A stretch of 64,000 nucleotides of DNA from Escherichia phage T2 (NC_054931.1), one strand, 5' to 3'. Positions 8,378-36,661 are shown, numbered from the stretch's first letter. A program made the numbers and translations. Notes: generated by a model from the letters alone, not told the origin.

Positions 8378-8848
8378 TTAATCATGTTTCCACACCCCAT
8401 CGGTATTTGACCAAAGTCGCTGATTATCTGATCCTCGCCACAGCTTTTTAGTCGGAAGATTTTTCTCATACTTCCCATCAATAATAACATCAACATATTT
8501 AAGCATTTCTAGTTGTTTAATATCTTCAAACTTATATCCTGTCCACAACCAAATGCTTTTATTGGGATAAAGATTTTTTACTGTTTGAACAATGCAATGA
8601 ATGACATCTCGATTATCCGGATAGAGAGGGTCTCCTCCAGTTATAGTCAATCCTTCTATATAATCATTATTCAAACATTCAATTAATTGTTCTAGTGTTT
8701 CACCAGTGAATGGAATACCATTTCTAGCATTCCATGTTGATTTATTATAACACCCTTCACATTTATGCAAACAACCTGTAACGAAAAGAACGACCCTGCA
8801 ACCAGGGCCATTCACAAAATCGCAAGGATAAAATCTATCATAATTCAT
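8378..8848 (-). CDS. nrdG: Anaerobic ribonucleotide reductase activating protein (radical SAM)
   Basis: 156-aa ORF with Cys-rich motif CDFVNGPGCRVVLFVTGCLHKCEGCYN; stop overlaps nrdD start. Confidence 0.85.
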   Translation of the reverse strand: MNYDRFYPCDFVNGPGCRVVLFVTGCLHKCEGCYNKSTWNARNGIPFTGETLEQLIECLNNDYIEGLTITGGDPLYPDNRDVIHCIVQTVKNLYPNKSIWLWTGYKFEDIKQLEMLKYVDVIIDGKYEKNLPTKKLWRGSDNQRLWSNTDGVWKHD

Positions 8849-10662
8849 TGATGCTTAACCCTATGCATGATTTCTTTATTTTTGCCGAGATTAAATCCAC
8901 GTTCGTTCGGATTTCCCAAATAACCACACGTTCTTCTTATTGTGTTCATCTTTTTAGGATCAGTTTCTCCACAAATAGAACAAACAAATCCGTTTTCAGT
9001 AGGAGTCATTTCATGGGTACTTCCACATGTAAAACATTTATCTACCGGCATGTTAACACCAAAATAATCTAAATGTTGTGCAGCATAATCCCATACGGCC
9101 TCAAGACCCTTTAAGTTATTTTTCATATCAGGAAGTTCAACATAAGAAATGTGACCACCTGTCGCAATGAAATGATATGGCGCTTCACGAGAAATCTTTT
9201 CAAACGGAGTAATATTTTCTTCTACTGAAACATGGAAACTGTTAGTGTACCAGCCTTTATCGGTAACATCTTTTACGCTTCCATATTTTTCTGTATCGAG
9301 TTTACAGAAGCGATAACAAAGGTTTTCAGCAGGAGTAGAATATAAACTAAAAGCAAATCCGGTTCTTTCAGTCCACTGTTTAAGATGAGCATTCATTTTA
9401 GTTAAAATTTCTCGTCCAATATCACGACCGACAAGAATATTCAATTCGTGAATACCAATGTATCCTAAAGACACTGAACTTCTACCGTTTTTAAATAACT
9501 CAATTATGTCGTCATCAGGTTTAAGACGAACCCCGAATGCACCTTCTTGGTAAAGAATAGGAGCAACAGTAGCTTTAACTCCTTTTAAGGAACTAATTCT
9601 ACACATCAAAGCTTCAAAACATAAATCCATTCGTTCATTGAACAATTCAACAAATTTCTGTTCATTGAACTGTGTTCCAATATAAGAATCTAACGCGATG
9701 CGAGGAAGATTCAGTGTTACAACACCAAGATTATTACGTCCATCAAGAATTTCATTGCCAGTCGAATCTTTCCATACGCCCAAGAAACTACGGCAACCCA
9801 TTGGAGAAACAGGAACAGATGAACCAGTGATAGCTTTATTGTTCTTAGCTGAAATAATATCAGGATACATCCTTTTGCTTGCACACTCTAAAGCAAGCTG
9901 CTTAATATCATAGTTCGGATCGTCTTTATAAAGATTAACACCTTCTTCAACGAACATAACAAGCTTAGGGAAAATAGGAGTTATCCCATCACGGCCAAGA
10001 CCTTTAATGCGATTTTTCAGAATTGCTTTCTGAATCATTCGTTCAGTCCAGTCAGTTCCCGTACCAAATGTAATTGTTACAAAAGGCGTTTGTCCGTTTG
10101 AACTAAAGAGAGTATTTACTTCATATTCATAAGCTTGGAATGCATCGTATACGTCTTTTTCTGTTTTAGATTGAGCATAATTCAACGCATCAGCGATTTG
10201 CCATTTTTCTGCATCCTCAATATGTTTTGCATATGTGCGTTTAACATAAGGAGAAAGTACTTTATCTACATTGGCAAAAGTCGTTCCGCCGTATTGGTGA
10301 GAAGCAACCTGTGCAGTAATTTGTGCCATAATTGCAGTAGCAACGCCAATTGATTTAGGAGTTTCAATCTGTGCATTACCAAGCTTAAATCCGTTTTCAA
10401 GCATTCCTTTTAAATCTACTAAACAGCAATTAGTAAATGGAAGAGCAGGGGAATAATCAATATCATGGAAATGAATAATTCCGCTTTCATGCGCTTTCAT
10501 AATAAAAGACGGGACCATATTTTTGGCAATGTGTTTAGACACAATACCAGCCATAAGGTCCCGTTGAGTTGGAAAAACACGAGAATCTTTATTAGCATTC
10601 TCGTTTAAAAGGTCTTTATTAGTTTTATGAATCAATCCTTCAATTTCTTTTTCAATTGTCAT
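8845..10662 (-). CDS. nrdD: Anaerobic ribonucleoside-triphosphate reductase (glycyl radical enzyme), uninterrupted
   Basis: 605-aa continuous ORF; C-terminal Cys cluster (CFTCGSTHEMTPTENGFVCSICG) and RTCGYLG glycyl-radical motif. Confidence 0.9.
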   Translation of the reverse strand: MTIEKEIEGLIHKTNKDLLNENANKDSRVFPTQRDLMAGIVSKHIAKNMVPSFIMKAHESGIIHFHDIDYSPALPFTNCCLVDLKGMLENGFKLGNAQIETPKSIGVATAIMAQITAQVASHQYGGTTFANVDKVLSPYVKRTYAKHIEDAEKWQIADALNYAQSKTEKDVYDAFQAYEYEVNTLFSSNGQTPFVTITFGTGTDWTERMIQKAILKNRIKGLGRDGITPIFPKLVMFVEEGVNLYKDDPNYDIKQLALECASKRMYPDIISAKNNKAITGSSVPVSPMGCRSFLGVWKDSTGNEILDGRNNLGVVTLNLPRIALDSYIGTQFNEQKFVELFNERMDLCFEALMCRISSLKGVKATVAPILYQEGAFGVRLKPDDDIIELFKNGRSSVSLGYIGIHELNILVGRDIGREILTKMNAHLKQWTERTGFAFSLYSTPAENLCYRFCKLDTEKYGSVKDVTDKGWYTNSFHVSVEENITPFEKISREAPYHFIATGGHISYVELPDMKNNLKGLEAVWDYAAQHLDYFGVNMPVDKCFTCGSTHEMTPTENGFVCSICGETDPKKMNTIRRTCGYLGNPNERGFNLGKNKEIMHRVKHQ

Positions 10663-28850: not shown

Positions 28851-29068
28851 TCATATTTGACTTCCTCACCAGTACATAAATCATATTCAACTAAACGAAT
28901 AGGTTCATGAATGCCATATCCCTGAACAGAAACTTCTGTCGTAGGATAAATTCCATCAATATCACCCATATTCCAGGCTTCATTAAATTGCTGTTCGCCT
29001 GAATTACTAAACCACTCGGCGAAAGCATTTATCACATCTTTAGAACCTTCAATAATTATCTTTGCCAT
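28847..29068 (-). CDS. Hypothetical protein
   Basis: 73-aa ORF; start overlaps the stop of the GrcA-like gene. Confidence 0.45.
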   Translation of the reverse strand: MAKIIIEGSKDVINAFAEWFSNSGEQQFNEAWNMGDIDGIYPTTEVSVQGYGIHEPIRLVEYDLCTGEEVKYD

Positions 29069-29430
29069 TACAAACTCTCGGTAAAGGTACGAGCGATAAC
29101 GTCGCGCTGCTGTTCCGGAGTCAGAGAGTTAAAGCGAACTGCATAACCGGATACACGGATGGTCAGCTGCGGATATTTTTCCGGATGCTTAACTGCATCT
29201 TCCAGAGTTTCACGACGCAGAACGTTAACGTTCAGGTGTTGACCACCTTCAATTTTAACTGTAGGTTGTGGCTCAATTTCAATTTCACGGGCATGCAAAC
29301 CATAGAAAATTTCTGGGTCTACAAAAGAGTCCTCTTTAAAGGTTTTAGAGACAATAATTCGTGCTTGAATACCATCTTCAAAATAAATAGTACCTTTATG
29401 TGTGCCTTCAAGAATTTGATATGCTTTCAT
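29068..29430 (-). CDS. Autonomous glycyl radical cofactor (GrcA/YfiD-like)
   Basis: 120-aa ORF; C-terminal half [63 protein letters not shown] with glycyl-radical RVSGY motif. Confidence 0.8.
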
Positions 29431-29437
29431 ATAAACC

Positions 29438-29818
29438 TCAATTAGAAAATAAATTTATCCAAGATTGTTCTTTAATTAAAAATGGCTCAGAATCATATGC
29501 CATTAAACTGTGGGTAATTAATCCTTTAAAAGGTCCATCAATAAATTCCATGGTAAAATATGGAATTTTATTCATTAGCCGTGCATTAGGAGCAGTACAC
29601 AAAACTCTGCATCCTTTGAATACGCCTTTTTGTAATTTGTATTGCTTAGGATAAAATTCGCTTAAAATGTTATTTTTTGCCAAAATTTCAAAATGATTCA
29701 CCAATTTATTTTTAATAGTTTTTGGCGAAAAATAAAGATATTCGAAAAGCTGAGTGTCTGTCATCATTGCATTCCGATTACGAAAAACTGTGGACGAGTA
29801 ATACCACCAATACAACAT
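29438..29818 (-). CDS. Hypothetical protein (start probably at internal MMTDTQ)
   Basis: 126-aa ORF; 5' end overlaps the frameshifted ATPase gene. Confidence 0.45.
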
Positions 29819-30300
29819 TTAATATTACAGCAGCAGTGTACAGTGTCAATATGGACACTATAAATCTTATCCATATCAGGAGATTTGACAGGCTCATCAA
29901 TTATATACAAAATTCGCGAAAGCGATAAACCTCTGAACTTGCTTCCTTTATTACCAATAACTGCGCACAGAATCAGTAAATAAACGAAAACGTATATCAT
30001 CATTAGAATAACGCGAAAATTCCTTTTTGATGTTATTTGCAGAAATTTTAGCGTAAGCTGAAGTATTAGAAAGAACAATAACTGTTCCGCCATCATACAA
30101 CCAATTAGCAGCAAAGTTAGTCACAGCAATTGATTTACCAGATTGACGTCCACCATCTAGTCGAAGTGTGCAATACTGTTTAAGTAAGTCTTCAAATGGC
30201 GGGATATTCGTTTTTACAAATTTCTTCTACTCTAGCATCAGAATGGTGTGTAAAAGCATTCATCAGGGATAGATAAGGACCAGTTAAAAATGTTCTCATT
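29764..30300 (-). pseudogene. P-loop NTPase gene interrupted by two frameshifts
   Basis: ATG at 30298-30300 then stop after 35 codons; second frame carries Walker A LDGGRQSGKS; third frame (ORF 29764..30114) carries Walker B ILYIIDEP; the first shift is at a CCC run. Confidence 0.5.
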
Positions 30301-31000: not shown

Positions 31001-32312
<1,312 letters not shown>

Positions 32313-35380: not shown

Positions 35381-35456
35381 TGGTCGAGGCAGTAGGGATC
35401 GAACCTACGACCCAGGACTTAGAAGGTCCTTGCTCTTCCTTCTGAGCTATGCCTCG
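35381..35456 (-). tRNA. tRNA-Arg (anticodon UCU)
   Basis: Manual fold: 7-bp acceptor stem, T-arm GGTTCGATCC, anticodon loop CTTCTAA, encoded CCA. Confidence 0.75.
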
Positions 35457-35460
35457 TATT

Positions 35461-35535
35461 TGGCGGACGTGATAGGATTCGAACCTATAACCAATCGCTT
35501 AACAGGCGATCGCTCTGCCATTGAGCTACACATCC
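35461..35535 (-). tRNA. tRNA-Asn (anticodon GUU)
   Basis: Manual fold: acceptor GGATGTG/CACGTCC, anticodon loop CTGTTAA, T-arm GGTTCGAATCC, encoded CCA. Confidence 0.65.
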
Positions 35536-35539
35536 AAAT

Positions 35540-35626
35540 TGGTGGGGAGTGATGGAGTCGAACCACCCGAGTCGCAATGACAATGAATTTACAGTCCACA
35601 CCGCTACCTCTACGGGATAACTCCCC
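35540..35626 (-). tRNA. tRNA-Tyr (anticodon GUA), long variable arm
   Basis: Manual fold of 87 nt: acceptor GGGGAGT/ACTCCCC, anticodon loop CTGTAAA, variable-arm hairpin, T-arm GGTTCGACTCC, CCA. Confidence 0.55.
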
Positions 35627-35636
35627 CAAATTAATT

Positions 35637-35711
35637 TGGTGGCCCTGGGTGGAATTGAACCACCATCTGGCGATTATGAGTCGCTTGCTTGAACCTTCCA
35701 GCTACAGGGCC
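35637..35711 (-). tRNA. tRNA with CAU anticodon (Met or lysidine-type Ile)
   Basis: Manual fold: acceptor GGCCCTG/CAGGGCC, anticodon loop CTCATAA, T-loop GTTCAAT, CCA. Confidence 0.65.
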
Positions 35712-35719
35712 AAATTTTC

Positions 35720-36124
35720 TTATTTTATGTAATATTTATTTAAAAACTTTCTAGCTTGAGTATGGCTAACATTTATAGCGTTTGCATAATTTTTAATAAA
35801 ACCTCGTTCATCCATATTAAAATTTTCTAATATTTTTAATCGTCTAGTTATCTCATCTTTGCTTAAGGTACTTGCATTATTTTTAGAAATTTTTTCTAAG
35901 GACTGTGCCGAGTGTTTTCGACCATTAAAATTAAAATTTTTAGATTTTGGAGGAAATCTATCATTTAGTCTCGCATCTTTTGTATTTTGATTATTAGTTG
36001 CGCAATATATGTTATTTAATGAATATGGTCCTTTATCACCGAAACGGCACATGCAGTATTCATGACCCTTTCTTCCACGCTTATCATATTTTCCCGTTGA
36101 TTTCCACCAATAGCCATTCATCAA
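35720..36124 (-). CDS. Small HNH-like endonuclease-like protein inside the tRNA cluster
   Basis: 134-aa basic ORF with Cys/His/Asn motif (HEYCMCRFGDKGPYSLNNIYCATNNQN); sits between the two tRNA sub-clusters. Confidence 0.4.
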   Translation of the reverse strand: MMNGYWWKSTGKYDKRGRKGHEYCMCRFGDKGPYSLNNIYCATNNQNTKDARLNDRFPPKSKNFNFNGRKHSAQSLEKISKNNASTLSKDEITRRLKILENFNMDERGFIKNYANAINVSHTQARKFLNKYYIK

Positions 36125-36245
36125 AAGTTAAATTCCATTCAATGTTTCTACGTATAGCAGAATTCCGCTGAGAAATATTTTGCATAATCTTCTTTCATCA
36201 CAAATTTCTCTACTTATTCAATACACCGAGCTAAATCAGCAAAAC

Positions 36246-36335
36246 TGGCGGAGGCGATAGGATTTGAACCTATGAGTCGCCGGAGCGACTGCCGGTTTTC
36301 AAGACCGGTGCATTAAACCACTCTGCCACGCCTCC
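36246..36335 (-). tRNA. tRNA-Ser (anticodon UGA)
   Basis: Minus-strand GGAGGCGTGGCAGAGTGGTTTAATGCACCGGTCTTGAAAACCGG...; long variable arm; encoded CCA. Confidence 0.85.
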
Positions 36336-36337
36336 AG

Positions 36338-36411
36338 TCTCCATACAAGGATTTGAACCTTGGACCTCCTGATCCCAAATCAGGCGCTCTACCAAACTGA
36401 GCTACACGGAG
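36338..36411 (-). tRNA. tRNA-Pro (anticodon UGG), no encoded CCA
   Basis: Manual fold: anticodon loop TTTGGGA, T-arm CAAGGTTCAAATCCTTG; 3' end abuts tRNA-Ser. Confidence 0.7.
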
Positions 36412-36421
36412 TAAATTAAAT

Positions 36422-36495
<74 letters not shown>

Positions 36496-36500
36496 AAATT

Positions 36501-36589
36501 TGGTGCGAGAAGTGGGACTCGAACCCACAAGGAAATCATTCCGCAGCATTTTAAGTGCTGTGCCTTTACCAATTTGACCATTCTCGCGC
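36501..36589 (-). tRNA. tRNA-Leu (anticodon UAA)
   Basis: Minus-strand GCGAGAATGGTCAAATTGGTAAAGGCACAGCACTTAAAATGCTG...GGTTCGAGTCCCACTTCTCGCACCA. Confidence 0.85.
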
Positions 36590-36661
36590 TGGGAATAAAG
36601 GACTCGAACCTTTGCATCTAGCAGTCAAAGTTCTATGCCTTACCAACTTGGCTAATTCCCA
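36590..36661 (-). tRNA. tRNA-Gln (anticodon UUG)
   Basis: Minus-strand TGGGAATTAGCCAAGTTGGTAAGGCATAGAACTTTGACTGCTAGATGCAAAGGTTCGAGTCCTTTATTCCCA. Confidence 0.8.

Follow-up and report, generated by a model that had tools for sequence, protein, structure and literature searches.

The vs.6 gene of phage T2 is, at a probability of roughly 0.87, the same pyruvate formate-lyase (PFL) spare part as T4 vs.6/Y06I, and it belongs to an old grcA lineage found in phages, its 3' half having been overwritten by the grcA gene of the host. It provides a clean and quantified case of a lytic phage gene in which the functional domain consists, almost to the base, of host DNA. The DNA analyzed here, referred to as the window, comprises 64,000 nucleotides of Escherichia phage T2 (NC_054931.1). 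Within it, vs.6 is an ATG-started open reading frame on the minus strand (29068..29430) that encodes a GrcA-like autonomous glycyl-radical protein of 120 amino acids plus stop (13.8 kDa). An earlier note on this DNA had picked out the same frame and quoted its C-terminal sequence, and the 120-residue minus-strand translation ends exactly so.

The vs.6 locus in T2 and T4

The T2 protein is identical to that of T4T vs.6 at 120/120 residues, and the ~1.3 kb around the gene agree at 100% with six phage T2 records and at 98.1% with T4. In the annotation of T4T and of T2 record MH751506, vs.6 is flanked by vs.7 and vs.5 in the regB-side cluster. The suspicion in the earlier note that a T4 homologue had already been described was well founded: T2 vs.6 has an identical protein, the same position between vs.7 and vs.5, and the same DNA mosaic as T4 vs.6/Y06I, the protein of Wagner et al. 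2001 (BBRC 285:456, pmid 11444864), cited in PMC8683613. Relative to T4, the T2 gene carries two extra synonymous changes at codons 117 and 118, near the start of vs.5 (ACC GAG in T2; ACT GAA in T4 and E. coli), with no functional difference. The protein cluster that contains T2 vs.6 has 148 members, is represented by A0A653FZL9_BPT4, and is named "autonomous glycyl radical cofactor" by several sources.

A GAGG motif 5 nt upstream of the vs.6 ATG (29436..29439, minus strand) overlaps the vs.7 stop codon and is the putative Shine-Dalgarno sequence of the gene. At the other end, the last three codons and stop of vs.6 (29068..29079, minus strand) delimit the host tract on its 3' side; the stop and the start of vs.5 overlap as TAATG, and the segment doubles as the vs.5 translation-initiation region. 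Scanning for promoters and terminators between 28200 and 30600 returned 11 promoter-like sites against 8.6 expected, and thus no usable signal.

As the earlier note had observed, the window also carries a phage-encoded glycyl-radical ribonucleotide reductase together with the corresponding activase, ~18 kb downstream of vs.6 on the same strand. These are nrdD (8845..10662, minus strand; Pfam NRDD at 5.6e-171 plus Gly_radical) and nrdG (8378..8848, minus strand; Pfam Fer4_12 and Radical_SAM), both named from the annotation of T2 MH751506. Window coordinates in the nrdG/nrdD region are 5 nt off those of MH751506.1, and there is no offset at vs.6; hence a small indel relative to that record lies between about 10.7 kb and 29 kb.

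Family assignment and the radical domain

Profile and structure comparisons agree with the description of the product as GrcA-like. NCBIfam TIGR04365 (GrcA equivalog; IPR011140) aligns to vs.6 residues 20-120 (E 3.7e-45), and the best PDB match is the GrcA NMR structure 6OWR (E 8.6e-42, residues 22-120), followed by PFL residues 697-759 (E 5e-26). The score of vs.6 against TIGR04365, 153.3 bits, stays below the equivalog cut-off of 170 bits because its N-terminal half has diverged; E. coli GrcA scores 233.9. The phage family PHROG 1209, whose function is unannotated, aligns to vs.6 residues 1-120 at profile positions 1-121 (E 1.2e-62).

Gly_radical is the sole Pfam domain of the protein (residues 61-101, E 2.8e-18), and there is no catalytic barrel. 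A full-length PFL is defined as an enzyme of ~760 amino acids with the catalytic Cys418/Cys419 barrel, and vs.6 aligns to the PFL profile TIGR01255 at positions 680-744 only, with 88.9 bits against a cut-off of 994. The radical domain is nonetheless of the PFL type, as 47/59 residues are identical to PflB. It includes the glycyl-radical motif RVSGYAV (29137..29157, minus strand; codons 92-98), which vs.6 and GrcA have in common, and alignments to 6OWR GrcA and 1CM5/1H16 PFL equate Gly95 (29146-29148) with GrcA Gly102 and PFL Gly734. Residues 60-120 also share this C-terminal radical domain with GrcA2 (NF008341) and GrcA3 (NF038360), proteins of ~80 amino acids that, unlike vs.6, have no long N-terminal half; vs.6 remains below both of their cut-offs (93 vs 145 bits and 107 vs 158 bits, respectively). 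A single-sequence AlphaFold2 model of vs.6 was unusable (mean pLDDT 34.5).

Host DNA in the 3' half of the gene

Residues 61-120 of vs.6 are identical to residues 68-127 of E. coli GrcA, 60/60, when compared with grcA from a RefSeq E. coli chromosome. The earlier note had put the match at the C-terminal ~70 residues and had held that only weak similarity to host GrcA would count against it. The match itself holds, at 100% identity, but it runs over 60 residues rather than ~70; the first 60 residues differ from the host protein, just as the note had described for the N-terminal half.

The correspondence extends to the DNA. In BLASTN, the vs.6 coding sequence matches grcA in 5426/5426 complete E. 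coli genomes over nt 179-363 (97.8% identity, E 4e-83), and upstream of nt 179 none of these genomes gives an E. coli match, the sensitive BLASTN mode included. The host-identical tract (29080..29252, minus strand; coding nt 179-351, 173 nt) is E. coli grcA in sequence and codes for the structured glycyl-radical domain. Over this 173-nt core, T4 agrees with E. coli grcA at 173/173 positions and T2 at 172/173. Altogether T2 differs from E. coli grcA at four sites in codons 117-120, all of them synonymous: one in codon 117 (nt 351) and three in 29068..29079.

Base composition divides the gene at the same place. GC content rises from 33.7% in the 5' part to 48.6% in the 3' part, compared with 35.0% for the 64-kb window and 47.9% for grcA, and GC at third codon positions (GC3) is 18% in the 5' half and 46% in the 3' half. 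The two halves are therefore distinct in both GC and GC3; a comparison of their GC and codon usage was what the earlier note had proposed as a test for recent host acquisition. Coding nt 184-363 (180 nt, 49.4% GC) fall in the top 0.42% of all 180-nt stretches of the window. The other GC-rich peaks of the window, and the main rival to the vs.6 tail in this respect, belong to a tRNA cluster (35381..36661, minus strand) of nine genes: Arg, Asn, Tyr, Met, Ser, Pro, Gly, Leu, and Gln.

Could the gene simply be ancient, with a tail that resembles the host's only because purifying selection on the radical domain has been extreme? In favor of this, the protein of the tail is strongly conserved, and Slopekvirus and Pseudotevenvirus tails have 59/59 protein identity to E. 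coli GrcA with DNA identity of only 83-84%. Selection on the protein, however, cannot fix synonymous sites. The same tail protein is encoded by 13 bacterial grcA genes of our comparison panel, and among the 173 core sites these differ from T2 at 1 (E. coli), 3 (cryptic Escherichia), or 14-28 (the other eleven), so that the identity sits at synonymous sites and is specific to E. coli. T2 and T4 are thus 0-1 differences from the E. coli core, against 14-28 in bacteria with the same protein, and the GC3 of the tail is host-like relative to that of the head. Because the identity extends to synonymous sites, descent without recent transfer is refuted for practical purposes, and we attach almost no weight to it.

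Even less credit is due to an artefact, in which contamination with host DNA or mis-assembly produced the host-like stretch. An abrupt change of composition is all that would favor it, whereas the same mosaic with the same breakpoint recurs in 751 phage records from many laboratories, six independent T2 records agree at 100% identity, and the reading frame is intact.

Overwriting of the phage gene by host grcA, the reading we prefer, is also in line with phylogeny. When the 173-nt core is used for a neighbor-joining tree, the tails of Tequatrovirus and Mosigvirus group with Escherichia in 197/200 bootstraps and a phage-only clade of tails appears in 0/200. The direction of transfer is from host to phage because the composition of the tract is host-like and the tract is nested within enterobacterial grcA phylogeny. 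Near-identity to grcA in DNA, host-like GC and GC3, and a tail nested within Escherichia together uphold the claim of a host-derived C-terminal module.

Whether the tract was copied more than once in this group is less clear. Relative to the tails of JK45 and Mosigvirus, those of T2/T4 have fewer changes (1 vs 6), a difference that is not significant in a relative-rate test (p 0.125), and no E. coli genome among the 5426 comes closer than 95.1% identity to the JK45 tail. A second refreshment of the T2/T4 tail after its split from JK45 and Mosigvirus is only suggested by these values. The JK45 tail may reflect an older event or a different donor.

A diverged GrcA N-terminal half in the 5' part

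The phage-type 5' part (29253..29430, minus strand) is AT-rich and consists of coding nt 1-178, that is, codons 1-59 and the first base of codon 60. It could be read as an unrelated phage open reading frame to which a fragment of host grcA became fused in frame, making a new two-part protein and a true chimera. Consistent with this, host grcA shows no DNA similarity to the 5' half, the Pfam Gly_radical match is limited to residues 61-101 and the first 60 residues alone have no Pfam match, and composition shifts sharply at one point. Yet the N-terminal half aligns to that of GrcA in three independent comparisons. The TIGR04365 and 6OWR alignments extend back to vs.6 residues 20-22, well into this half, and an hhalign comparison of thirteen distinct phage N-terminal halves with the distinct bacterial N-terminal halves of the panel gives a probability of 95% (E 3.6e-8, 60 columns). 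After trimming of 8 or 15 residues next to the junction, hhalign still returns E 6e-5 to 8e-5 with a probability of 62-65%, while the reversed-sequence control gives 1.3% (E 0.04).

The distribution of the gene likewise speaks against a fusion. Homologues of vs.6 were found by tblastn in 1590/50,697 phage records. The pattern of the N-terminal half (MKAYQIL...G.H.GTI...) occurs, in some cases in diverged form, in other Straboviridae, T5-like Demerecviridae, Asteriusvirus-type jumbo phages, and Aeromonas phages. Among these, the T5-like, jumbo, and Aeromonas phages join it to a radical tail with only 65-78% DNA identity to any host of the panel, and the tail proteins of these phages are about equally distant from GrcA and PflB. 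Since the N-terminal pattern and the radical tail are found together in phages whose tails are not host-like, the full-length phage grcA lineage is older than the host-identical tract. Moreover, both junctions of the tract are in frame and without indels. We consider a true chimera very improbable. By sequence comparison, both halves of vs.6 are derived from GrcA and differ in age rather than in ancestry, with no fusion to an unrelated frame. The "chimeric architecture" of the earlier note thus survives in part: a host-derived tail does sit on a phage-type head, but that head is a diverged GrcA N-terminal half rather than something unrelated.

Relative to E. coli GrcA/YfiD, vs.6 is 7 residues shorter and its N-terminal half, homologous at ~30% identity, is strongly diverged and of a phage-specific pattern. 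The genomic settings also differ, as vs.6 lies in an AT-rich phage cluster and the host gene in an ung-grcA-eamB neighborhood. A homologue search with the N-terminal 63 residues retrieved 6 near-identical fragments and no distant relatives, and is uninformative on the origin of this half. In Morganella phage vB_Mm5, the annotated coding sequence is 217 amino acids long (937-1590 of the locus extract) and only its C-terminal ~130 residues are GrcA-like; the remainder is either a genuine N-terminal extension or an upstream open reading frame merged by annotation.

Host-specific replacement in Klebsiella Jiaodaviruses

A comparable mosaic with a different donor is present in Jiaodavirus. The heads of these genes, from Klebsiella and Salmonella phages (Roth20, PSE-D1), are 74% identical to T2 at 35-36% GC, and the tails have a GC content of 56-57% and the sequence variant LLDAVEH, which is characteristic of GrcA of the Klebsiella type. 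Over the tail core, PSE-D1 agrees with K. pneumoniae-type grcA at 96.5% identity, including a perfect run of 104 nt, and Roth20 at 92.5%; against E. coli grcA the Jiaodavirus tails reach 84-86%. A 32-nt string of the PSE-D1 tail was located in 31 stretches of metagenome contigs, mostly gut bacterial contigs of 56-58% GC with a host-type GrcA, and the GrcA of those gut contigs is that of Klebsiella pneumoniae (GRCA_KLEP7). The best neighbor-joining tree contains a clade of Jiaodavirus and K. pneumoniae tails, at a bootstrap of 102/200 only.

A survey of phage records with the two host genes gives reciprocal results. The E. coli grcA query matches 623 phage records at 95% identity or more, with sampled Klebsiella phages at 86-88%. 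The K. pneumoniae grcA query matches 106 phage records at 95-99%, those among the sampled rows being all Klebsiella phages; sampled Escherichia, Shigella, and Yersinia phages are at 85-88%. For the E. coli query, 39/40 sampled rows share a match start at grcA nt 200-205 (codon 67-69), and in the rows sampled for the K. pneumoniae query the match starts within a few bases of that 5' breakpoint. No phage record covers even 80% of the E. coli grcA query, and hence none has a host-like 5' half.

Taken at the level of sequence, replacement of the tail by host DNA occurred independently in the T2/T4 group (from E. coli) and in Jiaodavirus (from K. pneumoniae-type grcA), with nearly the same boundaries, and therefore at least twice. 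It is, in other words, a host-specific replacement in two phage genera.

These comparisons yield the following history. The gene is a member of the old phage grcA lineage and has that lineage's own, diverged type of N-terminal half. A 3' core of ~175 bp was then replaced by host grcA, most likely, judging from the pattern, because the phage copy and host DNA underwent homologous recombination. The donor was E. coli for the T2/T4 group and, separately, a K. pneumoniae-type grcA for the Klebsiella Jiaodaviruses. T4 has a highly active recombination system, and host DNA is broken down during infection. Homologous replacement from host DNA fits this biology.

Boundaries of the replaced tract

The ends of the tract may have been set by where phage and host DNA can pair and by what the phage sequence must retain. 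The 5' junction lies at the start of a nearly invariant core (EGGQHLNV), upstream of which pairing between phage and host is probably prevented by their divergence. The 3' junction falls a few codons short of the stop, in a stretch where the phage DNA also serves translation initiation of the next gene and would presumably be kept. Most homologue loci examined (T4-like, T5-like, and Asteriusvirus) have the 1-nt TAATG stop/start overlap with the downstream gene, though the identity of that gene varies. The downstream start is at position 1563 in six homologue locus extracts and at 29068 in the T2 window, with the same TAATG overlap. Tequatrovirus and Mosigvirus have vs.5 as the downstream neighbor, and Jiaodavirus, Slopekvirus, and Pseudotevenvirus have a vs.4-like gene there; this difference between genera rules out a conserved partner gene downstream of vs.6.

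The replaced tract also nearly coincides with the structured half of YfiD. According to the structural account in PMC8683613, YfiD residues 61-127 fold like PFL 693-759 and residues 1-60 are disordered. Residues 61-120 of vs.6 accordingly cover almost the whole structured domain of GrcA (61-127), the one that replaces PFL 693-759.

Proposed function during infection

In the summary that PMC8683613 gives of Wagner et al. 2001 (pmid 11444864), YfiD and T4 Y06I are proteins of ~14 kDa that receive a radical from PFL activase, bind PFL cleaved at Gly734, and restore its activity, and they are the only two validated PFL spare-part proteins. Gly734 of PFL is described there as the site of both the radical and oxygen cleavage. 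YfiD's N-terminal half, which is disordered, is said to aid binding to cleaved PFL and installation of the radical, and to be dispensable for catalysis (PMC8683613); PMC13450708 still calls its role "enigmatic". The diverged and phage-conserved N-terminal half of vs.6 bears on this question of what the disordered YfiD N-terminus does (PMC13450708).

Following the literature on the T4 protein and YfiD, the host activase PflA would place the radical on Gly95 of vs.6. Residues 61-120 would then insert into host PFL whose radical domain has been cut by oxygen at Gly734, and the repaired enzyme would again convert pyruvate to acetyl-CoA and formate. The radical domain of vs.6 is identical to that of the host, so compatibility with host PflA and PflB can be safely inferred. 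The benefit to the phage may be twofold. PFL that is kept running in micro-oxic hosts could sustain energy supply, and a sustained supply of PFL-derived formate could provide reductant for phage NrdD, as expected from the E. coli class III enzyme. In E. coli, class III ribonucleotide reductase uses formate as its reductant (Mulliez 1995, pmid 7568012, as cited in PMC13450708).

Gene neighborhoods in other phages point the same way. A vs.6 homologue is situated either between nrdD and nrdG or next to them in the jumbo phages PHA46 (1195-1557 of the locus extract) and UE-S1 (1198-1557) and in Aeromonas phage AsFcp_4 (1201-1584). The combination of a GrcA-like gene with nrdD/nrdG suggests an "anaerobic dNTP supply" module in which PFL formate feeds NrdD. 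This formate rationale for T2 draws on the arrangement in three other phages and on textbook biochemistry.

The same neighborhoods could instead mean that vs.6 has a client other than host PFL, acting for example as a spare part for NrdD, or as a decoy, either by titrating host PflA or by blocking PFL. A role in nucleotide metabolism was put forward, as a guess, by Nolan et al. 2006 (PMC1524935) in an account of vs.6 as conserved in all six T4-like genomes compared, and the N-terminal half, which binds PFL in YfiD (PMC8683613), is different in the phage protein. Against a different client, the radical domain is identical to that of GrcA and of the PFL type, and Y06I is reported in PMC8683613 to restore cleaved PFL in vitro. 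The position near nrdD is equally explained by formate supply to NrdD. BLASTP of vs.6 against T2 NrdD found no pairwise similarity, the best alignment (E 2.7) being in a segment away from the radical site, and a spare part for NrdD is rejected at this level. We consider a client other than PFL very improbable. For host PFL as the client, which we favor, the literature searched documents no in vivo role of vs.6 in infection.

Relation to known systems

Knowledge of the vs.6 gene and of its biochemical activity dates back to 2001, and the gene is routinely annotated as "autonomous glycyl radical cofactor". The host-matched replacement of its radical domain is possibly new, and is the sole angle for which this might be said. 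The searchable literature holds no description of the host-tracking pattern or of mosaicism in phage grcA, and it excluded the likeliest sources (Wagner 2001; Miller et al. 2003); Petrov et al. 2010 makes no mention of vs.6.

A useful parallel is found in cyanophages. Their psbA is a host-derived auxiliary metabolic gene with documented intragenic phage-host recombination. Like psbA, vs.6 is a phage copy of a protein that is damaged in normal operation, and both genes are patchworks of phage-type and host-type segments. Unlike psbA, vs.6 supplies a spare domain only, and its host-type segment is nearly identical to that of the current host and has fixed boundaries.

By extension, the 3' half of vs.6 might be a standing site of phage-host exchange that repeatedly re-copies the grcA radical domain of the current host, once in E. 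coli phages and once in Klebsiella phages. It would thereby stay matched to PflA and PflB, with a phage N-terminal half that alters targeting or timing and with formate serving NrdD. We offer this broader scheme tentatively, as a conjecture somewhat on the doubtful side. If exchange is ongoing, vs.6 would be a natural reporter of phage-host recombination in T4-like phages and an unusually direct case of an auxiliary metabolic part that is kept matched to its host.

Upstream genes nudE and vs.8

Two further differences between T2 and T4T were observed in this region. The nudE open reading frame of T2 (31001..31987, minus strand) is without its own stop, and a T-run that reads CTCTTTTAATT in T4T reads CTCTTTAATT in T2. 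The resulting frame shift leads to an in-frame run into the lysozyme gene e, for an open reading frame of 328 amino acids, and gene e still has a GGAGG ribosome-binding site and an ATG of its own. The difference in the T-run could be a real feature of T2 or a homopolymer sequencing error. Finally, vs.8, which lies upstream of vs.7 and vs.6, is present in T2 as two fragments (29764..29910 and 29951..30124, minus strand), whereas vs.8 of T4T is intact at 651 nt.
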